From a virus (Duplodnaviria > Heunggongvirae > Uroviricota > Caudoviricetes), in IMG/VR virus record IMGVR_UViG_2693429676_000011: a stretch of DNA of 10,097 bases. The stretch is one strand, 5' to 3'. The notes under the pieces are model-generated. The model was not told where the DNA came from, made no database searches, and saw nothing but the letters and a program-made list of their open reading frames with translations. The position numbers and the translations under genes were made by a program. This document shows positions 458 to 9,608 of this stretch, piece by piece. Each line of letters opens with the position of its first letter. Positions within the stretch are counted from its first letter, which is position 1.

Positions 458-673
458 TTACTCTCCCCGTGCAGCCTTACGACGGTCCTCTCTGATTTTG
501 AAATACAGGTTAGTCAGATATGTCAGCAGCCCAAACAGCAGACTCCCCAGCACGCCTATTGCCGCCCACTGAGACGGGGAAACCCTGTCCAGCAACTGCA
601 GGAACCAGTAGCCCGTTCCCACCGCTGACGTGGTGTATGACACACCTGTTGTGATTTTTTCCATCTGGTACAT
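458..673 (-). CDS. Class II holin, phage 21 S-type (pinholin-like), 71 aa with dual-start motif
   Basis: Translation [71 protein letters not shown] closely resembles phage 21 S. Two Met codons at positions 1 and 4 (673..671 and 664..662) fit the antiholin/holin dual start. GGGAG lies 7 nt upstream of the ATG at 673. The six-frame ORF extends to 751, but that extension has no matching homology or RBS. Confidence 0.85.
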
Positions 674-708
674 ACCCCGTCTCCCGTTATCCGGAAGCTG
701 ACAACAAT

Positions 709-738
709 AAAAAAAGCCACCAGTTAAGTACTGATGGC
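709..738 (-). terminator. Putative intrinsic terminator between nanS-p and the holin gene
   Basis: On the minus strand an 8-bp stem (gccatcag / ctggtggc, one G-U pair) with a 7-nt loop is followed by TTTTTTT. Confidence 0.5.
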
Positions 739-823
739 TCTGATAACTCATGCAGGCATCTCAGACGACCCACTGACACTACCGGTGAGTTTAACGATAC
801 CTTCCATTTGGCTGGCTCACTTT

Positions 824-2677
824 TTATGATGATGCCGGTGCATTTATCTCCAGCACCAGACTTTCTATCTCAACGCCATACGCTGCATTTTTGGTAATAT
901 CCGTCAGCGTCAGCGCATTCAGCCCCAGTGTCAGACTGTCTTTTATGACCTGGAATGCCGGGCCAGCCACTCCATTCAGTTTCGGAGTAACCGTGGCACT
1001 GCCGGCGGTGAACACCAGCTCCAGCGTCAGCCAGTCGTTACTGTAATTCCCGAACTCGCCCAACTTTGTGTTTCCTGCTTTCTTGTGATGCATCAGATTC
1101 AGTTTGCCGTCTGTGGTCTGGGTGAAGAACGACATCAGGAACGGGTTACCAGTCCCGGTCATCGCCACGACGTCAGGTAACGCTACATCGGTATACAGAT
1201 AAATTCCCAGACCGAACTGGTTGTTGGTCAGTGCGCCTGACAGTCGAAACTTACAGCTCAGTCTGCCACCCCGTGTCAGCAGGGAGACTGCGTCATCCAC
1301 CGGGCGCGTCAGGGACCAGGCTTTATTGCTCTGCTTGGTGATCTTAAATACACCATCTGACAACTGAACTCCGCCATTCTTAATGCTCCAGCCCTGCGCA
1401 GCAGCGTCTCCGGCTGTCGGCAACAGGGAGATTGTGCGTATGGATGCATCTTCAGACGGCCCCGATGGCGTGTCGCCGCCGGGCGAGGGTTTGATTTCCG
1501 GTGCCTTACCACTAATGAAGGCTAAGGTGCGACCGGCTACGTTCAGAATAGCAGTTGCCATACGATCGGGAATAATGCCACGACGCGCCCATGAGCTGAA
1601 ATGCGTCGGGCGATTTGATGATACCCAGTTTTTGTTCGTTCGGGATGCCGAACCGTAATAACCAGACCCGGCAATATCAGGATCTTCTGACGGGTTGTTT
1701 GTCGGTGTATTAACTCCGCTACCATCGGTCATAAAGGGAACAAAATAAATCTGCTGGGATTCTTTACCTTTATATGCACCATATACCACTTCATATTGCG
1801 TACCGTGTTCTTGTTTCCACGCGTATGTCGTGTCGCCACAAATCCAGGGGACTGATGCCGGACTTCCACCGTGACACTGCGCCGCCAGCCCGGCAAGGTC
1901 AGCACGGAACTGCTGTACCATTGCAAGAAATGCTGCTGGCTGCTGGGCGTAACTGGCATTCGTCATATCGAATTCCCCCTGCATCCAGCATATCGCCAGC
2001 AAAACGTTTTTCGGGTTTTTCTGCAATGCTGCCTTCGTGCGGAAAAGCAGATCCTGATATAACGGCTTACCCACTCCCCAGCGAGCCGAATCCTGACTGG
2101 CCCCCGTGGACTCGCTGAATGTCCCCTCCGTGCCCTGGGTGAATGCCGAACCACCACAACAGCATGGTACCAGCAGGATCCCCGCATTATTAGGGATATA
2201 CGGAAGCAGTTTTTTGGCAATATGTAAGCCCTGTCCGACACAGCCGTACTGCCCTTTGCTCAGGTCAGCCCGGGGATGGTTAATCGTACTCATATCCTGA
2301 ACATCATGCAGACAATGGTCAGCAGGAATGATGTCGTTAAATACGCATACTTCACCACCGGGAGTCACTGTGTTACGACGGGCCAGTTGCTTAATGCGCG
2401 GATGGGGCGCATCGTATGAATCCGGAAGCGGAAGACCTTCACCGTAAGCCATGGCATTGGATTGCCCGGCCAGTACGATGACGTAGTACCACTCCGGCTC
2501 AGTTGCACCACTGACGACCACATCACCTTCTGCTGCAATCGCCTGCATCAGGGTATAAGGGGTTATGGCCACCGGACTACCAAACGGCTGCCAGCCCTCC
2601 TTCAGTTTTTGTGTCAGTCGTTTCGCAAGGTCTGACGGCGATGCCGCCCTGACCACGTCATAGTGTTTAAATGCCAT
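824..2677 (-). CDS. nanS-p: Prophage-encoded sialate O-acetylesterase (NanS-p family, SASA/SGNH hydrolase), 617 aa
   Basis: Long ORF with the SASA active-site block VIVLAGQSNAMAYGEG and an N-terminus MAFKHYDVVRAASPSDLAKRLTQKLKEGWQPFGSPVAITP that matches my recollection of NanS-p proteins encoded downstream of stx in EHEC lambdoid prophages. GGAGGA precedes the ATG. It occupies the canonical position between the tRNA/stx site and the lysis genes. Confidence 0.9.
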   Translation of the reverse strand: MAFKHYDVVRAASPSDLAKRLTQKLKEGWQPFGSPVAITPYTLMQAIAAEGDVVVSGATEPEWYYVIVLAGQSNAMAYGEGLPLPDSYDAPHPRIKQLARRNTVTPGGEVCVFNDIIPADHCLHDVQDMSTINHPRADLSKGQYGCVGQGLHIAKKLLPYIPNNAGILLVPCCCGGSAFTQGTEGTFSESTGASQDSARWGVGKPLYQDLLFRTKAALQKNPKNVLLAICWMQGEFDMTNASYAQQPAAFLAMVQQFRADLAGLAAQCHGGSPASVPWICGDTTYAWKQEHGTQYEVVYGAYKGKESQQIYFVPFMTDGSGVNTPTNNPSEDPDIAGSGYYGSASRTNKNWVSSNRPTHFSSWARRGIIPDRMATAILNVAGRTLAFISGKAPEIKPSPGGDTPSGPSEDASIRTISLLPTAGDAAAQGWSIKNGGVQLSDGVFKITKQSNKAWSLTRPVDDAVSLLTRGGRLSCKFRLSGALTNNQFGLGIYLYTDVALPDVVAMTGTGNPFLMSFFTQTTDGKLNLMHHKKAGNTKLGEFGNYSNDWLTLELVFTAGSATVTPKLNGVAGPAFQVIKDSLTLGLNALTLTDITKNAAYGVEIESLVLEINAPASS

Positions 2678-2870
2678 GAATCCTCCCGGCCGGGATAATA
2701 TTGTGAGTAAAATAAGGAGCGGGCTGAAGTCCGGAAGTTACAGGACAATGGCAGAAGAGAGACGACAGCCCGCAATTCGAAAAAGACCGCGCAGTTGCGC
2801 AGAGTGATTACTATGGGGTATTATTCGCCAGCTGAAATATTACTTCACGTTTTATTGTTTATTCCTTGCC

Positions 2871-2899
2871 GCCCGCGTCTCCCAGCGCGGGCTTTTTTT
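2871..2899 (+). terminator. Plus-strand intrinsic terminator, convergent with the minus-strand terminator at 2909..2928
   Basis: Perfect 7-bp GC stem gcccgcg (2871..2877) / cgcgggc (2886..2892) with an 8-nt loop, followed by TTTTTTT (2893..2899) on the plus strand. Confidence 0.5.
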
Positions 2900-2908
2900 G
2901 CCCACAAG

Positions 2909-2928
2909 AAAACCCCTCCGGAGAGGGG
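2909..2928 (-). terminator. Minus-strand intrinsic terminator ending repeat module U1
   Basis: Stem cccctc / gagggg with loop cgga (2913..2928); on the minus strand the hairpin is followed by UUUUCUUGU. Confidence 0.45.
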
Positions 2929-3176
2929 CTAAAGCCGCGTATCTGTATCATCATGCACATGGTGCCGGGTGCCTCCCGGTGAGTTCAGCCCGGTGCCACT
3001 AAACCCGCGTCATTCTCGTTTTGATAATCAGAGATTATACCGTCACCAGTCGCCCCTCCGCTCAGGGGGATTCACCATGCGAAATTTTTTTAACAAATGC
3101 CCAGTCTGACAGGCAACTGTCAACTTACTGAATTGTGAGCAACATAGCATTTAACGGGGAACCTGTTTTCTGCAGT

Positions 3177-3203
3177 AAAAAGGCCCACCGGAGCGGATGG
3201 GCC
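3177..3203 (-). terminator. Minus-strand intrinsic terminator at the upstream edge of U1
   Basis: Stem ggccca (3182..3187) / tgggcc (3198..3203) with a 10-nt loop; on the minus strand followed by UUUUU (rc of 3177..3181). Confidence 0.5.
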
Positions 3204-3394
3204 TGGAAGGATAGCGGTCATGTGATGCCGGTTTCCCGGTAACTCAGCACCGGTATCTGAGTCAACGTTTTCTCTACTGGGTCATTTCCGATACGCCCTG
3301 CCTGCTGACAGGCTTTCATCACATCTGAAAATATAGCACCCTGACTGATACTGTAGTACCTAAGGTTCCAGAAACTGTGATGTATCCGGCACAG

Positions 3395-3416
3395 AAAAGC
3401 CCCTCCGGAGAGGGCT
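3395..3416 (-). terminator. Minus-strand intrinsic terminator ending repeat module U2
   Basis: Stem cccctc / gaggg(c) with loop cgga; on the minus strand followed by UUUUCUGUG. Confidence 0.45.
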
Positions 3417-3612
3417 GGAGAGTGGCGCTATGTGCCATTGCATGATGCCGGGTGCCTCCCGGTGAATTCAGTACCAGCACCTGAATCCGCGATTATCCCA
3501 TATACCTACTCGCTGATTGCCCCTCCGCACAGGGGGATTCACCATGCCAGTTTCTTTTAACAAACTCCCCGCAAAACAGACAACTGTCAACCGTCTGAAT
3601 TGTGAGACATTT

Positions 3613-3638
3613 AAAAAAAAGGCCCGCAAAAGCGAGCC
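3613..3638 (-). terminator. Intrinsic terminator immediately downstream of the tRNA cluster
   Basis: Stem ggcccgc / gcgagcc (one mismatch) with loop aaaa; on the minus strand followed by U8 (rc of the A8 run at 3613..3620). It begins 15 nt after the 3' end of tRNA-Arg(UCU). Confidence 0.55.
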
Positions 3639-3652
3639 AGGGAAAATAAGTG

Positions 3653-3729
3653 TGGCGCGTTGTACTGGATTCGAACCAGTGACCGATTGCTTAGAAGGCA
3701 ATTGCTCTGTCCGGCTGAGCTAACAACGC
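3653..3729 (-). tRNA. tRNA-Arg, anticodon UCU (reads AGA)
   Basis: Manual cloverleaf on the reverse complement: GCGTTGT TA GCTC AGCCGGACA GAGC A ATTGC CTTCTAA GCAAT CGGTC ACTGG TTCGAAT CCAGT ACAACGC G CCA. Perfect 7-bp acceptor stem, 5-bp anticodon and T stems, TTCGAAT T-loop, encoded CCA; 77 nt. Confidence 0.9.
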
Positions 3730-3742
3730 ATGATGCAGATAA

Positions 3743-3819
3743 TGGACCGCCATCGGGGACTTGAACCCCGCGCAGCCAGCTTCGAAGGCTGGCGCTCTTT
3801 CCTGATGAGCTAATGGCGG
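3743..3819 (-). tRNA. tRNA-Arg, anticodon UCG (reads CGA), atypical C1-G72 and D-loop
   Basis: Reverse complement folds as CCGCCAT TA GCTC ATCAGGAAA GAGC G CCAGC CTTCGAA GCTGG CTGCG CGGGG TTCAAGT CCCCG ATGGCGG T CCA. All stems are perfect and CCA is encoded; 77 nt. First base C and the unusual D-loop lower confidence slightly. Confidence 0.8.
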
Positions 3820-3826
3820 TATGTGA

Positions 3827-3902
3827 TGGTGGCCCTTGCTGGATTTGAACCAGCGACCTGGCGATTATGAGTCGCTCGCTCTCACCACTGAGCTAAAGGG
3901 CC
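3827..3902 (-). tRNA. tRNA with CAU anticodon, ileX/ileZ-like (Ile2 lysidine type or Met)
   Basis: Reverse complement GGCCCTT TA GCTC AGTGGTGA GAGC G AGCGA CTCATAA TCGCC AGGTC GCTGG TTCAAAT CCAGC AAGGGCC A CCA; 76 nt. Near-identical in architecture to my recollection of E. coli ileX. Lambdoid Stx phages carry an ileZ-argN-argO trio at this position. Confidence 0.85.
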
Positions 3903-3942: not shown

Positions 3943-5001
3943 TCATCCGTTCTGGCTGACTAAATCCTGTACTTCCCGAACCGTCTGCTCAAAACGTTCA
4001 GTCTCCAGCTCAACGCCAATTGCACGACGCCCGAGCGCCAGTGCCGCTTTCACTGTCGAACCCAACCCCATGAAAAAATCTGCAATCAGGTCACCCGGAC
4101 GACTGCTAGCGCTGATTATCTGCTGCAGCATTTCTGCCGGTTTTTCGCACGGATGTTTCCCGGGATAGAACTGCACCGGTTTATGCGTCCACACATCGGT
4201 ATACGGCACCTGCACCGTCACGCCAAAATACCGCCGCAGATGTTTATATTCACTCAGCAGCTCCGCATACTGCCGGTTCAGTGAGGTATACGTATCCACC
4301 AGCTGGTGGTGGAGCTTTTCCAGTTCACCACGCCGATGCTTCTCTTCTGCCACCCGGGCAAACAGCGCCTGTAATTTCAGATAATCGCTTTCATTCGGCA
4401 ACTGCCACTGACCGGCACTGAACCAGTGCGACACCATGTTTTTCTTTCCTGTGGCATCTGCAATCTGTTTTGCCGTTATCCCCAGGGCAGCTCGCGCATC
4501 ACGAAAGTAAGAAATCAGCGGGGCCATCACATGCTGTTTCAGTGCACTGCCCTTCGCCGCATACCCGGCATCTTTCGGACGATACGGCCCCTGATAATGT
4601 TCCGCGAACAGAATGCGCTCTGTGGCGGGGAAATACGCCCGCAGGCTTTCCTTGTTGCATCCGTTCCAGCGTCCGGACGGCTTCGCCCAGATAATATGGT
4701 TCAGCACACTGAAGCGTTCACGCATCATGATTTCGATATCAGATGCCAGGCGATGACCACAGAACAGGTAAAGACTTCCGGCAGGTTTCAGCACCCGCCA
4801 GAACTGCGCCAGACACTGGTCCAGCCACTTCAGGTAATCATCGTCGCCCTTCCACTGGTTATCCCAGCCCTCAGGCTTCACTTTAAAGTACGGCGGGTCC
4901 GTGACTATCAGGTCAACAGAATTTTCGGGTAACGACCGGATAAATTCCAGGCAGTCGGCGTTGATTAACTCACAACTGGATATTTTTACAGTATTAAGCA
5001 T
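3943..5001 (-). CDS. Orphan phage DNA methyltransferase (amino-methyltransferase fold), 352 aa
   Basis: DPPY motif near the N-terminus (LIVTDPPYF) and an FxGxG SAM-binding motif near the C-terminus (FFMGLGST), with a large insert between them. No restriction endonuclease partner in the window. Matches the position of the methylase gene between Q and the tRNAs that I recall in some Stx phages. The Shine-Dalgarno is weak, so the exact start is uncertain. Confidence 0.85.
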   Translation of the reverse strand: MLNTVKISSCELINADCLEFIRSLPENSVDLIVTDPPYFKVKPEGWDNQWKGDDDYLKWLDQCLAQFWRVLKPAGSLYLFCGHRLASDIEIMMRERFSVLNHIIWAKPSGRWNGCNKESLRAYFPATERILFAEHYQGPYRPKDAGYAAKGSALKQHVMAPLISYFRDARAALGITAKQIADATGKKNMVSHWFSAGQWQLPNESDYLKLQALFARVAEEKHRRGELEKLHHQLVDTYTSLNRQYAELLSEYKHLRRYFGVTVQVPYTDVWTHKPVQFYPGKHPCEKPAEMLQQIISASSRPGDLIADFFMGLGSTVKAALALGRRAIGVELETERFEQTVREVQDLVSQNG

Positions 5002-5137: not shown

Positions 5138-5165
5138 AAATAAAAAAGCCTTCACTGCGGAAGGC
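5138..5165 (-). terminator. Intrinsic terminator after the 65-aa ORF
   Basis: Stem gccttc / gaaggc with loop actgcg; on the minus strand followed by UUUUUUAUUU. Overlaps the stop codon of the 65-aa ORF. Confidence 0.6.
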
Positions 5166-5465: not shown

Positions 5466-5492
5466 TCATAAAAAACCCGCTCGGCGGCGGGT
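5466..5492 (-). terminator. tR'-like intrinsic terminator about 65 nt downstream of the predicted pR' start
   Basis: Minus-strand RNA ACCCGC-CGCCGA-GCGGGU followed by UUUUUUAUG. Confidence 0.6.
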
Positions 5493-5528
5493 TGTAGAAA
5501 CTCTTCTAACGTCAGGCATAAAACGCCC

Positions 5529-5568
5529 ATCGTTATGACGAATTTACCACAGATTCCGGAAAAATCAA
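5529..5568 (-). promoter_or_regulatory. Late promoter pR' with a lambda-type sigma-dependent pause/qut element
   Basis: On the minus strand: -35 TTGATT (rc of 5563..5568), 16-nt spacer, -10 TAAATT (rc of 5541..5546), then CGTCAT-AACGAT-GGGCG. This parallels lambda pR' (TAAATT-TGACTC-AACGAT-GGGTT) as I recall it, and lies directly downstream of the Q gene. Confidence 0.65.
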
Positions 5569-5573
5569 CCTTG

Positions 5574-6395
5574 TTACCTAGTTACCTTTTTTAACTGCCG
5601 CTCAGCCCATGCTTCTTCAATATCAAACCGGGTCACCAGCGCATCATAAAATTTCTTAACTGTTTTTTCCCATGACGCGCGTGTTATCTGGTTTGTCACC
5701 TCGCATATAGCATTAAATGCCTCCGTTGATGGTAGTCTTTCATAGCCACGACCACCACAACGCTGGCAGTCTCTGATAACAGGCATACCACGTTTTACCG
5801 ACTCTTCACGATGAATGGCGACACCACGCCCACGGCAATCCTTACAGGCGGTGGAAACCTCACCCTTTCCGCCACACTCCGGACAGGCAACTTTTACCAC
5901 CTCCCTGACTTTTTTCCATTCTTCCCAGTAAGACGGATACACACCTTTCGTACACTTTGCCCATACCGGCGGCTTACCATCCGGATACTGGATCTTGTTT
6001 GTAAAAACCTCGCTTTCAATAAATTTTTTTCCGTGACAGCAGGGGCACTGTTTTTTGCTCGCCGCGCTACGGGCATAATCTTCAAACGCATACGAAGCCA
6101 TAATACGCATCACTGCCGGTTTTATTTCTGCCGGGAGTTTTCTTAACGCCGCCACGCGATCACACCGACTGAGTGCATATTCTGTCAGCAATTCTGTTGC
6201 CCGCTCTCTGTCATTCATACTAATGCCCATTTTCCCAAGGAACGCAGAAACCCCCATCTCAGCCCGATTCTGTGTCATGCCCTGCGCGGCCATCACATCA
6301 GTGATACTCAGCGCATCTTTCGACGTTGAGGCCGATGCATCAGTCAGGCCGGGGGATTTTGGGGAGTAGTATTTCGGTAAATCTTCCAGTTTCAT
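5574..6395 (-). CDS. Late antiterminator Q (QuuQ/Q82-like, with DnaJ-type CxxCxGxG zinc motifs), 273 aa
   Basis: Lies immediately upstream of the pR'-like promoter and downstream of rusA sequence. Cys-rich motifs CPECGGKG, CKDCRGRG, CQRCGGRG. Start ATG overlaps the TGA of a 37-codon rusA 3' remnant (ATGA). Family call is from memory plus position, not a search. Confidence 0.75.
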   Translation of the reverse strand: MKLEDLPKYYSPKSPGLTDASASTSKDALSITDVMAAQGMTQNRAEMGVSAFLGKMGISMNDRERATELLTEYALSRCDRVAALRKLPAEIKPAVMRIMASYAFEDYARSAASKKQCPCCHGKKFIESEVFTNKIQYPDGKPPVWAKCTKGVYPSYWEEWKKVREVVKVACPECGGKGEVSTACKDCRGRGVAIHREESVKRGMPVIRDCQRCGGRGYERLPSTEAFNAICEVTNQITRASWEKTVKKFYDALVTRFDIEEAWAERQLKKVTR

Positions 6396-6562
6396 TTTTT
6401 GACCTGCCCTTCAAGCATTATGGGATAAATCTTCACCCCCAGACGTCCACCAGATACTGGCTGAGCACGAACGATATTGATTTCATCAAACTGCTCATCG
6501 TCCATTAACGGCGCTTATCCGGTGGTTCTGCAATAATTTTTATTGCCAACCTTCCGGACAGG
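5890..6562 (-). repeat. Tandem duplication, copy A (Q 5' part, rusA 3' remnant, junction)
   Basis: 5890..6507 aligns with 6563..7182 at an offset of 675 bp. 53 bp at 6510..6562 match 7247..7299. The 11-bp tccggacaggc occurs at 5879..5889, 6552..6562 and 7289..7299. Confidence 0.85.
6392..6505 (-). pseudogene. Duplicated 3' remnant of rusA (37 codons, MDDEQFDEINIVRAQPVSGGRLGVKIYPIMLEGQVKK) upstream of full-length Q
   Basis: Block 6396..6507 is identical to 7071..7182, the 3' end of intact rusA. Retains an in-frame ATG and the ATGA overlap with the Q start. Confidence 0.6.
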
Positions 6563-7070
6563 CAACTTTTACCACCTCCCTGACTTTTTTCCATTCTTCC
6601 CAGTAAGACGGATACACACCTTTCGTACACTTTGCCCATACCGGCGGCTTACCATCCGGATACTGGACCTTGTTTGTAAAAACTACGCTTTCAATAAATT
6701 TTTCCCCATAGCAACAAGGGCACTGCTTTTTACTCGCTGCGCTGCGGGCATAATCCTCAAAAGCGTACGAAGCCATAATGCGCATCACTACCGGTTTTAT
6801 TTCTGCCGGAAGTTTTCTCAACGCCGCCACACGATCGCACCGACTGAGTGCATAATCTGCCAGTAATTCTGTTGCCCGCGCCCTGTCATTCATACTAATG
6901 CCCATTTTCCCAAGGAACGCAGAAACCCCCATCTCAGCCCGATTCTGTGTCATGCCCTGCGCGGCCATCACATCAGTGATACTCAGCGCATCTTTCGACG
7001 TTGAGGCCGATGCATCAGTCAGGCCGGGGGATTTTGGGGAGTAGTATTTCGGTAAATCTTCCAGTTTCAT
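6540..7070 (-). pseudogene. Truncated paralog of Q (Q'), 176 codons: the Q N-terminal region (through KVACPE) plus 3 junction codons
   Basis: Matches full Q through ...KVREVVKVACPE, then reads GWQ-stop across the duplication junction. Eight amino-acid differences from Q cluster in the middle. Start ATG overlaps the rusA TGA (ATGA). Confidence 0.7.
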
Positions 7071-9235: not shown

Positions 9236-9264
9236 AATAAAAACAAAAACCCGCCGAAGCGGGT
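9236..9264 (-). terminator. Intrinsic terminator of the hok transcript
   Basis: Minus-strand RNA ACCCGC-UUCG-GCGGGU followed by UUUUUGUUUUUAUUUU, about 70 nt after the hok stop. Confidence 0.7.
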
Positions 9265-9333
9265 TAAGTGTGGGTGCATTGAGGATGCCTGACCCATCAG
9301 AGGTGGCGAGGGATTTCTCCCCCGCCTGGTCTC

Positions 9334-9489
9334 TTACTCCTCAGGTTCGTAAGCTGTGAAGACAGCGACCTCCGTCTGGCCGGTTCGAATTCGTACCTCG
9401 CAGAGGTCTTTCCTCGTTACCAGTGCCGTCACAATGACGGTTAAACAGATGACGATCAGGGCGATTAACATCGCCTTTTGCTGCTTCAT
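9334..9489 (-). CDS. hokD: Hok-family type I toxin (HokD/RelF-like), 51 aa
   Basis: Translation MKQQKAMLIALIVICLTVIVTALVTRKDLCEVRIRTGQTEVAVFTAYEPEE matches my recollection of E. coli HokD/RelF. An upstream in-frame ATG at 9546 gives the 70-aa six-frame ORF and sits where mok lies in hok/sok loci. Confidence 0.9.
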   Translation of the reverse strand: MKQQKAMLIALIVICLTVIVTALVTRKDLCEVRIRTGQTEVAVFTAYEPEE

Positions 9490-9537
9490 AGCCTGCTTCT
9501 CCTTGCCTTTCGGCACGTAAGAGGCTAACCTAGATTT

Positions 9538-9608
9538 GCCGTTCATAGATTGAGCCTCAGATTAATGTTAAGCGTCTTGCCGGACGCGTAATGTTAACTG
9601 GGGCTTTT
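9538..9608 (+). ncRNA. Candidate Sok-like antisense RNA of the hok locus
   Basis: Plus-strand promoter-like elements: -35 TTGCCT (9503..9508), 17-nt spacer, -10 TAACCT (9526..9531). They parallel the R1 sok promoter as I recall it (TTGCGC, 17 nt, TATCCT). The predicted transcript is antisense to the mok start region and ends in a U-rich stretch (cuuuucucuaucugccuuuu). Ends are approximate. Confidence 0.4.

Follow-up and report, generated by a model that had tools for sequence, protein, structure and literature searches.

A putative small RNA gene island in the stx slot of an stx-negative lambdoid prophage

The window analyzed here is a 10,097-nucleotide stretch of DNA from a Caudoviricetes virus (IMG/VR record IMGVR_UViG_2693429676_000011), in which we focused on the 975-bp interval between the tRNA cluster and the nanS-p gene (2678..3652, Table 1). 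On the minus strand, Pfam assignments give the gene order DUF968, RusA, two Antiterm/Q-family ORFs, methylase, tRNAs, nanS-p, and holin, in agreement with the order from Q to the holin reported in a preliminary description of this DNA. A pR'-like promoter and a tR'-like terminator (5468..5568, minus strand) lie directly downstream of Q. The first tRNA (CAT) is a tRNA-Ile in UTI89 according to PGAP. As had also been described, the interval of about 1 kb holds no ORF of at least 60 aa: the longest one located wholly within 2678..3652 has 53 aa, and ORFs of 77 and 68 aa extend out of the interval into a tRNA-Arg gene.

The same order had been likened to that of Stx phages, in which stxAB reside between the tRNAs and nanS-p, and the interval had been regarded as an stx-less cargo site. 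The likeness holds except for the methylase, which is absent between Q and the tRNAs in the Stx2a phages L005 and L002. The comparison with Sakai Sp5 backs the cargo site, as the order there is the argO terminator, stx2AB, an STnc100 match (207.7 bits), a convergent AsxR gene (88 bits), the leader hairpin, and nanS-p. A layout with an STnc100-type gene between Q and the lysis genes is common to the window, Sakai Sp5, the Stx2a phage L002, and UTI89.

Table 1. Features of the window in the order of minus-strand transcription. Entries with "sequence" or "position and sequence" as the basis were assigned from these alone.
Feature	Position	Strand	Basis and details
Antiterm/Q-family ORFs	7070..6540 and 6395..5574	-	Pfam Antiterm
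pR'-like late promoter	TTGATT 5568..5563; TGgTAAATT 5549..5541	-	position and sequence
tR'-like terminator	5493..5474 and T-run	-	position and sequence
Terminator-like hairpin	5165..5148	-	
N6_N4 DNA methylase	5001..3943	-	Pfam
ileZ/argN/argO-like tRNA cluster	3902..3653	-	Rfam tRNA matches; CAT (ileZ-like), Arg-TCG, Arg-TCT
Intrinsic terminator trailing the argO-like tRNA	3613..3638 (stem 3638..3621, then T8)	-	terminator scan
Gene B, upstream region	3548..3606	-	sequence; CTCACAAT box 3606..3599
Gene B, putative promoter	-35-like TTGTCT 3583..3578; 18-nt spacer; extended -10 TGtTAAAAG 3562..3554	-	sequence
sRNA gene B, STnc100 family	3390..3547; inferred 5' end 3547 (GCAUGGUG...); terminator stem 3416..3398	-	Rfam
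Gene C, elements	extended -10 TGcTATATT 3338..3330; terminator stem 3204..3181	-	sequence
sRNA gene C, diverged full-length paralogue (C-type)	3175..3338; inferred 5' end ~3324 (AUGUGAUG...)	-	fold and covariation
Gene A, upstream region	3081..3139	-	sequence; CTCACAAT box 3139..3132
Gene A, putative promoter	-35-like TTGCCT 3116..3111; 18-nt spacer; extended -10 TGtTAAAAA 3095..3087	-	sequence
sRNA gene A, STnc100 family	2903..3080; inferred 5' end 3080; terminator stem 2930..2911	-	Rfam
Convergent sRNA gene (EcOnc42/21/08 type), antisense to nanS-p leader	2718..2899	+	homology to EPEC locus
Antisense sRNA, elements	-10-like TAAAAT 2708..2713; candidate seed CCUUGCC 2864..2870; terminator stem 2871..2892 and U7	+	sequence
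Terminator-like hairpin and T5 in nanS-p leader, ~100 nt upstream of start codon	2780..2802 (stem 2802..2787)	-	scan
nanS-p-type sialate O-acetylesterase, 617 aa	824..2677	-	Pfam DUF1737, SASA, DUF6645
P21-type holin	751..458	-	Pfam

The interval contains repeats, as two homologous modules had been proposed at 2908..3205 and 3393..3640. The repeat pairs are real (3052-3139 versus 3519-3606, 82% identity; 2958-2988 versus 3441-3471, 94%; 2903-2927 versus 3390-3414, 88%), whereas the proposed bounds are off because each module had been drawn to include an upstream terminator that is part of the unit before it; the units run from about 3139 to 2900 and from about 3606 to 3387. A Rfam covariance-model search on both strands, as the preliminary description had suggested, placed both units on the minus strand above the 47-bit gathering threshold of STnc100 (RF02076). 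Gene A scores 161 bits (E 5e-37, model span 3109..2900) and gene B 123.6 bits (E 2e-27, model span 3576..3387), which bears out small RNA genes among the readings offered earlier for the modules.

STnc100 corresponds to EcOnc27 of Sakai Sp5 (Tree et al., 2014) and to sRNA103 of EDL933 (Gruber & Sperandio, 2015). Like EcOnc27, genes A and B fit the covariance model over its whole length, possess a U-tailed terminator, and lie in the same orientation between the pR'/tRNA region and nanS-p, partnered by a convergent antisense sRNA gene. EcOnc27 resides just 3' of stx2B, and copy A occupies exactly that place; its position relative to nanS-p equals that of the STnc100 matches in Sakai Sp5 and L002 (185.7 bits). 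Gene A is the positional equivalent of EcOnc27/sRNA103. Unlike the EcOnc27 locus, the window lacks stx and carries three genes in tandem. Their linker sequences, which are candidate seeds, differ from that of EcOnc27, and across the RNA copy A shares only 67% identity with the Sakai copy.

Upstream of both genes, the -35 element TTGYCT, an 18-nt spacer, and TGTTAAAA recur at a fixed spacing in all A/B-type homologues, and the corresponding elements of PasD read TTGACT/TATTAAAA. These assignments are consensus-level reads that an automated promoter scan did not call, and the -10 elements TAAAAA and TAAAAG are without the usual final T. The alternative -35 candidate TTGACA, located upstream at 3123..3118 and 3590..3585, was rejected since, unlike TTGYCT, it is not conserved in other family members. 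For gene B, 3547 was taken as the 5' end from the RNA-seq start of PasD2, which lies at this GCAUGGUG motif as well.

What had been described as a partial third copy at 3221..3262 turned out to be part of a full-length diverged unit at about 3338..3175, gene C. It scores 30.1 bits against STnc100 (E 1.7e-4, 1-kb search), and because this score is under the Rfam threshold, we class it as a diverged relative and not among the curated members. Gene C folds by itself into the architecture of A and B (z = -2.6) and differs from them by compensatory changes in helices P1 and P4.

All three units fold independently into one shared architecture: an 8-bp helix fastens the 5' end to the body, and internal hairpins and a Rho-independent terminator with a U-tail complete the fold. 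A single-stranded linker, the candidate seed, differs between A, B, and C. The structural case rests on covariation because the single-sequence folding energies of A and B are no better than those of shuffled sequences (z -1.1 and -0.6). We aligned 13 sequences: A, B, C, the UTI89 copy of B, two Stx2 phage copies, five copies from L006/L007, and PasD1/2. In this alignment, 94.5% of cells are paired versus 38-51% with the partners slid, and P1 and P4, helices outside the terminator, reach 99-100% pairing and show four compensatory pairs each, although such percentages are inflated by the kinship of the sequences and by the derivation of the structure from one of them. Changes on both sides of a pair number 12 versus 1-3 when slid, and none of 500 shuffles reached the observed values. 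C and PasD are out of register in helices P2 and P5 of the MAFFT alignment. Conservation at the hairpin level, as suggested earlier, extends to helices outside the terminators.

PasD1 and PasD2, the EcOnc13 homologues of EPEC E2348/69, resemble these genes in having the 5' motif GCAUGGUGAAUCC and the P1/P2/P4 architecture, in their promoter spacing, and in lying upstream of a gene for a sialate esterase. Their scores of 41 and 38 bits are below the STnc100 threshold, as is that of copy C. Their identity to A, B, and C is 46-58%, a relationship at the superfamily level only; the PasD seed UGUGAG and the long U-rich linker are absent from A, B, and C, and the CCGGG/CCCGG hairpin is missing in PasD. 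A common ancestor of PasD and STnc100 has been proposed (Zhu, Shabalina & Storz, 2026 preprint, bioRxiv 10.64898/2026.05.13.724894). Forcing PasD onto the nanS-p leader gave an uninformative alignment; it aligns with the STnc100 body instead.

On the plus strand, a fourth gene runs antisense to the nanS-p leader. Its alignment with E2348/69 (NC_011601 1444797..1444978, minus strand) is near-identical, differing by a few substitutions only, and the EPEC counterpart is the Hfq-bound RIL-seq sRNA "E2348C_1409.E2348C_1408.IGR" of the EcOnc42/EcOnc21/EcOnc08 type. Both share the seed CCUUGCC, the terminator, and the antisense relation to the nanS-p leader, and the target motif of the EPEC sRNA, GGCAAGG/GGCAGGG, is complementary to this seed. 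The gene occupies the slot held by AsxR in Sakai Sp5, flanked by the moron cargo on one side and the conserved downstream ORF on the other, and converges on an STnc100-type gene as do AsxR and AgvB (RF02703, RF02702) in the "convergent sRNA dyads" of Tree et al. (2014). Its RNA would be about 180 nt long, against 51-60 nt for those two, and would carry a different seed. We rejected AsxR/AgvB as its identity, as no covariance-model match with E≤10 appeared in 2650..3660 on either strand while the Sakai Sp5 control gave 88 bits for AsxR. An OmrA-B assignment (25 bits against a cut-off of 40) was also dismissed, as the score reflects the terminator and U-tail only and the EPEC homologue was found.

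The four minus-strand terminators listed in the preliminary description were all recovered by our scan; they trail the argO-like tRNA and genes B, C, and A. The first of them, which had been counted within a module, is real but lies outside any module, being the argO-trailing terminator. The same hairpin precedes stx2A in Sakai Sp5 and is also found in E2348/69 PP6. The region holds 12 terminator-like sites versus 1.9 ± 1.5 in shuffled sequences. Two hairpins had been overlooked, namely the minus-strand hairpin in the nanS-p leader (2802..2787), which is kept in Sakai Sp5, the Stx2a phage L002, and E2348/69 PP6, and the plus-strand terminator of the antisense gene (2871..2892, followed by T7).

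Taken together, the family membership, the covarying shared structure, the conserved promoter-like elements, the synteny with Stx phages, and the conservation of the B-C-A order lead us to interpret the interval, with a probability of roughly 85%, as an sRNA gene island at the "moron" site of an stx-negative lambdoid prophage. It would consist of tandem genes B, C, and A of the STnc100/EcOnc27/PasD superfamily and a convergent EcOnc42-type gene, with the RNAs acting in trans with Hfq and Q-dependent read-through across the array. The homologues have been observed as discrete Hfq-bound RNAs: EcOnc27 by Hfq-CRAC and northern blotting (PMC4104026, PMC7873438), PasD1/2 by northern blotting and RIL-seq (PMC8550237), and EcOnc42 by northern blotting and Hfq-CRAC. 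STnc100 copies are transcribed in EDL933, one of them confirmed by northern blotting (PMC5331693), and the reported effects of sRNA103 on fimZ and espA come from overexpression only. By analogy with these published homologues, A, B, and C are presumably transcribed, bound by Hfq, and active in trans. In the lysogen, sigma-70 polymerase would transcribe each minus-strand gene from its own promoter and stop at its own terminator, yielding independent RNAs of about 150-180 nt that would bind Hfq and base-pair in trans with host and prophage mRNAs. Upon induction, Q-modified polymerase starting at pR' would pass all terminators into nanS-p and the lysis genes. The pR'-tR' element could also produce a short terminated RNA like the Lambda 6S RNA/StxS. 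Unlike the island genes, this element (5568..5468) lies outside the interval and shows no sequence kinship to the modules.

The preliminary description had also considered a terminator array that limits nanS-p and lysis expression to Q-modified polymerase. In its strongest form, the array would act mainly in cis as an insulator keeping nanS-p and the lysis genes silent unless polymerase is Q-modified at pR', with any RNAs as functionless by-products. Seven minus-strand terminator-like hairpins between the pR'-like promoter and nanS-p (Table 1) fit such a role, and it is well established for lambdoid phages that Q lets polymerase read through terminators further downstream (PMC7547250). However, a terminator needs just a hairpin and a T-run, yet about 130 nt upstream of each are conserved, and an insulator leaves unexplained the eight compensatory pairs of P1 and P4 as well as the promoter-like elements at fixed spacing. 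Moreover, in lysogens that have not been induced, homologues build up as discrete RNAs bound by Hfq, and in other lambdoid phages Q dependence is achieved by tR' alone. We therefore consider insulation unlikely as the main explanation and plausible as a secondary effect: as a by-product of the sRNA genes, the terminators probably also confine nanS-p and lysis expression to Q-modified polymerase.

We rejected, as very improbable, the view that repeated recombination at a hotspot left the modules behind as functionless remains of stx, tRNA flanks, or other cargo, the scars of cargo exchange suggested earlier. The family is indeed mosaic, as the L002 copy joins the 5' part of Sakai EcOnc27 to the 3' linker and terminator of copy B, five IMG/VR loci carry a truncated C, and all six differences between the window and UTI89 are found in or beside copy B. 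They include a C>T change in helix P1 of gene B and a 1-nt deletion in its terminator arm, given which copy B of this window may be decaying. Against debris, tblastn with Stx2A and Stx2B gave no match to the interval at E≤10, and blastn matches were confined to the shared flanks, revealing no stx remnants. Among copies sharing 43-77% identity, covariation preserves the pairing; over 100 genomes contain the entire 975-bp interval with at least 99% identity, and the cassette persists in divergent phages.

Least probable of all is that the modules encode small proteins from the AUG of the conserved GCAUGGUGAAUCC motif: despite an N-terminal reading MVNPP.(R/W)RG conserved in the A/B-type copies and PasD, and ribosome footprints on some EDL933 STnc100 copies (ribosome coverage values up to 3.2, PMC5331693), we rejected a conserved small ORF, since its length ranges from 8 to 41 aa among copies, copy C has none (UGA directly after the AUG), the conserved codons overlap helices P1 and P2, copies differ by indels whose lengths are not divisible by three, and the interval has no Pfam-scale ORF. 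As had been proposed, the conservation is not in a reading frame.

Returning to the sRNA gene island, its kind and place are already known, and the finding is real but mostly described before; it leaves the current understanding unchanged. What it adds is modest, namely a C-type paralogue that stays under the threshold and the conserved B-C-A cassette. In a survey covering E. coli collections and IMG/VR, the C-type occurs in 673 of 5426 complete E. coli genomes and at 117 IMG/VR loci. In both sets it is almost always located between two typical copies, and an A/B-type copy lies upstream at every one of the 117 loci. The B-C-A array is also present in UTI89, in CRE1493, in the phages PhiR5_2 and vB_EcoS-640R1, and in IMG/VR. 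A degenerate 16-mer, GCRTGGTGAATCCYCC, searched against 596 Gb of genome contigs returned chance matches only, in unrelated phyla, the pattern being too short.

Tentatively, and at somewhat below even odds, the C-type may form an unannotated separate branch of STnc100/PasD, residing almost exclusively in mid-cassette, with its own putative promoter (TGcTATATT) and candidate seed, and the B-C-A cassette, combined with the antisense EcOnc42-type gene, may be what occupies the stx slot of prophages lacking stx in ExPEC and other E. coli. Should C be expressed and control targets of its own, four regulators would travel with the cassette as a single mobile unit.

On the sRNA island reading, the "empty" stx slot of an stx-negative lambdoid prophage is not junk, as the class of Hfq-dependent RNAs that brackets stx in EHEC phages appears here multiplied to three sense copies and one antisense gene. 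This fits the published view of the pR'-to-lysis region as a hotspot for sRNA cargo and extends it to prophages of extraintestinal (B2) strains, e.g., UTI89 and S88. As for annotation, one of the three genes falls under the Rfam cut-off and would go unannotated, and the short "hypothetical protein" calls over the sRNA genes in public records are probably spurious.

Every gene of the window lies on the minus strand, and Pfam and ARAGORN bore out the gene order that the preliminary description had proposed. The 65-residue ORF ahead of the terminator that precedes the methylase gene gave no Pfam match. Judging from the sequence, the pR'-like promoter and tR' (5468..5568) would yield a terminated RNA of ~65 nt, analogous in position to lambda 6S RNA and StxS. 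In the UTI89 prophage, near-identical elsewhere, RusA is followed directly by the 273-residue Q alone, whereas the window has two Antiterm ORFs and is therefore mosaic at Q. The interval between the argO-like tRNA and nanS-p (2678..3652) indeed contains no sizeable ORF (at most 53 residues), and its direct repeats are real. We found 12 terminator-like sites in the interval, compared with 1.9 ± 1.5 in shuffled sequences, including all four minus-strand terminators described previously.

Features of the window and of the sRNA island
Feature	Position	Strand	Basis or remark
DUF968, RusA	ahead of the Q-family ORFs	-	Pfam
Two Antiterm (Q-family) ORFs, 176 and 273 aa	7070..6540, 6395..5574	-	Pfam
pR'-like extended -10 promoter, directly after Q	TTGATT 5568..5563; TGgTAAATT 5549..5541	-	sequence
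tR'-like terminator after Q	5493..5474	-	sequence
Terminator 3' of 65-aa ORF	5165..5148	-	
N6/N4 DNA methylase	5001..3943	-	Pfam
Three tRNAs, anticodons CAT, TCG, TCT (ileZ/argN/argO-like)	3902..3653	-	ARAGORN
STnc100 copy B	3576..3387	-	RF02076, full-length, 123.6 bits, E 2e-27
STnc100 copy C	3348..3175	-	RF02076, sub-threshold, 30.1 bits
STnc100 copy A	3109..2900	-	RF02076, full-length, 161 bits, E 5e-37
EcOnc42-type sRNA	2718..2899	+	
Terminator of the EcOnc42-type sRNA	2871..2892 plus T7	+	abuts end of A
nanS-p-type esterase, DUF1737+SASA+DUF6645, 617 aa	2677..824	-	Pfam
P21-type holin	751..458	-	Pfam

Small RNA genes had been among the suggested identities of the modules, and an Rfam scan of the window supported this with two full-length matches to the STnc100 family (RF02076), copies A and B, and a third, copy C, below the gathering score of 47 (E 1.7e-4 when the interval alone was searched). 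STnc100 overlaps EcOnc27 of Sakai, an sRNA validated by Hfq-CRAC and northern blot, and sRNA103 of EDL933 (PMC12711010, PMC7873438, PMC4104026). In EDL933, 11 Rfam STnc100 copies are transcribed, one of them confirmed by northern blot (PMC5331693), and in Stx2 phages a copy sits 75 nt 3' of stx2B (PMC12370729). Tree et al. found that at least eight prophages of Sakai have "convergent sRNA dyads" between moron cargo and a conserved downstream ORF, and Zhu, Shabalina and Storz argued for a common ancestor of STnc100 and the EPEC sRNAs PasD1/PasD2 (bioRxiv 10.64898/2026.05.13.724894). The family, its location, multiplicity, convergent partner and PasD link are already published. Short "hypothetical protein" CDSs or pseudogenes annotated over sRNA genes of the UTI89 locus (L001 4095..4220) and two further loci (L007 2996..3163; L008 2996..3163 and 3199..3411) are probably annotation artefacts.

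Copy C had been regarded as a partial third copy; the homology holds, but C is a whole gene that folds like the other two. Folded singly, A (3080..2900), B (3547..3387) and C (3324..3173) all adopt one architecture. The 5' end pairs with a segment ~100-120 nt downstream in an 8-bp helix (P1). Hairpins P2 and P4, the latter of 8-9 bp, are separated by a variable segment; the short GC hairpin P5 comes next, and a single-stranded linker leads to the terminator. Although C shares only 54-58% identity with A and B, the pairs are kept by compensatory changes: in P1, C has A-U/U-A/G-C where A and B have G-C/C-G/A-U, and the sixth P1 pair is G-C in A, G-U in B and A-U in C. We aligned 13 sequences (A, B, C, UTI89 B, PasD1/2, two copies from Stx2 phages and five from another two phages or prophages), which are related and one of which provided the scored structure; paired cells amounted to 94.5%, against 38-51% with partners slid by 1-3 columns, and 12 pairs changed on both sides, against 1-3 when slid, values reached in none of 500 shuffles. 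P1 and P4 were 99-100% paired with four compensatory pairs apiece. In the MAFFT alignment, P2 and P5 of C and PasD were out of register. The recognition of C as a structurally intact, sub-threshold paralogue is an increment over published work.

A and B remain homologous for ~30 nt ahead of the start of the Rfam model. In the family alignment, all A/B-type copies keep a -35-like TTGYCT, an 18-nt spacer and the extended -10 TGTTAAAA; in PasD the equally spaced elements are TTGACT and TATTAAAA, and C-type copies carry TGCTATATT in the extended -10 place. A TTGACA farther upstream was rejected as the -35 element because it is not kept in other copies. Since the RNA-seq-estimated 5' end of PasD2 (NC_011601 741157) falls on GCAUGGUGAAUCC, a motif common to A and B, the RNAs from A, B and C likely start at 3080, 3547 and ~3324 and measure ~178, 158 and 150 nt; the first 29 Rfam model positions would then be promoter. 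The minus-strand octamer CTCACAAT occurs upstream of B (3606..3599), upstream of A (3139..3132) and, within the nanS-p leader, 23 nt ahead of the start codon ATG (2707..2700), where it overlaps the promoter region of the plus-strand sRNA. All three occurrences in the window lie inside the interval, a number reached in none of 200 shuffles. The octamer may be compared with CUCACA, the RIL-seq target motif of the PasD seed, its complement AATTGTGAG equals a lac-operator half-site, and the octamers may simply mark module boundaries.

The plus-strand gene is near-identical to 1444797..1444978(-) of E2348/69, the locus of the Hfq RIL-seq sRNA "E2348C_1409.E2348C_1408.IGR", a homologue of EcOnc08/21/42 that has the cfa 5'UTR (767 chimeras), dppA and tir among its partners and GGCAAGG/GGCAGGG as its target motif (Pearl Mizrahi et al., PMC8550237). 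The complementary CCUUGCC is found at 2864..2870. EcOnc42, located 3' of stx1AB in Sp15, was validated by northern blot and Hfq-CRAC. In the window, the plus-strand gene is preceded by a -10-like hexamer, TAAAAT, at 2708..2713; its 5' end lies ~41 nt upstream of the nanS-p start codon, and it is antisense to the leader of nanS-p. It occupies the slot of AsxR/AgvB, of which it is not a member, because no AsxR/AgvB covariance-model match was obtained in the interval at E<=10. Its presence completes a four-sRNA island, a further increment over published work.

By homology, the four RNAs most likely act in trans as Hfq-dependent regulators, each transcribed in the lysogen from a promoter of its own. 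The mapped seed of PasD lies in the linker, and the linkers of A, B and C differ in sequence, so the three may have different targets. The terminators had also been proposed to act as a Q-dependent block. Seven minus-strand terminators are stacked between pR' and nanS-p and would halt unmodified polymerase; Q-modified polymerase should pass them, as it is known to do in Stx phages (PMC7547250). Such a block is plausible as a second function, but leaves the conserved promoters and covarying internal helices unexplained. A small protein encoded by the modules is unlikely, because the MVNPP... mini-ORF is 8 to 41 residues long depending on the copy and is absent from C.

Sakai Sp5 has the order argO, terminator hairpin, stx2A, stx2B, STnc100 (207.7 bits), AsxR (88 bits, opposite strand), leader hairpin and nanS-p. 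Its argO-trailing hairpin is the same as window 3638..3621, its leader hairpin is identical to window 2802..2787, and the Stx2a phage Stx2_EC3283 shares this layout. In both, stx2AB stand where the window has B and C; copy A of the window takes the EcOnc27 slot. Given this comparison, the term "stx-less cargo site" fits reasonably well; "scars of stx" does not, as tblastn with Stx2A/B found nothing and blastn matched only the common flanks. The STnc100 copy of Stx2_EC3283 (L002 3559..3728) is itself mosaic when compared with Sakai (L005 3452..3624) and window 3547..3390: its 5' body is identical to EcOnc27 and its linker and terminator to the B-type, a candidate seed region apparently swapped by recombination within the family.

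Of 5426 complete E. coli genomes, 673 carry C-type sequences, which fall into two main variants (100% and 91%); five phage records carry them too. Above-threshold STnc100 matches flank them in CRE1493 and phages PhiR5_2 and vB_EcoS-640R1. Among 117 IMG/VR loci, all 110 with sufficient flank have an A/B-type 5' motif no more than 500 nt upstream of the C-type, and 104 of 114 have one on the downstream side. Because of this recurrent arrangement we regard B-C-A as a conserved cassette, and its travelling as such adds to published work. Five IMG/VR loci (L134 and four more) have a C-type gene that breaks off inside its linker and runs on into unrelated sequence, a possible insertion or recombination breakpoint.

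The 975-bp interval recurs at 99.4% identity in UTI89, S88, IHE3034, ATCC 11775 and many others, and 80% or more of it is contained in 353 of the 5426 genomes. All six differences from UTI89 fall within 3415..3622, in the argO terminator and gene B; among them are a C>T at 3445 that turns a P1 G-C into G-U and the loss of one nucleotide from the terminator 5' arm at 3415. C and A are unchanged. Copy B may be under relaxed selection in the window. The DNA downstream of the cassette is variable: nanS-p is intact in the window (617 residues), annotated as a truncated DUF1737 pseudogene in UTI89 (L001 4976..5194), and replaced by other cargo in CRE1493 and vB_EcoS-640R1 (iraM, opposite strand).

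Elsewhere in the window, a weak isrK-like match (9244..9325, 25.7 bits) lies below its cut-off of 50. A full-length sok match (RF01794, 9484..9659 (-), 112 bits, cut-off 59) adjoins a 70-residue ORF (9334..9546 (-)), and the pair resembles a toxin-antitoxin locus of the hok/sok type, situated in the early region of the prophage.
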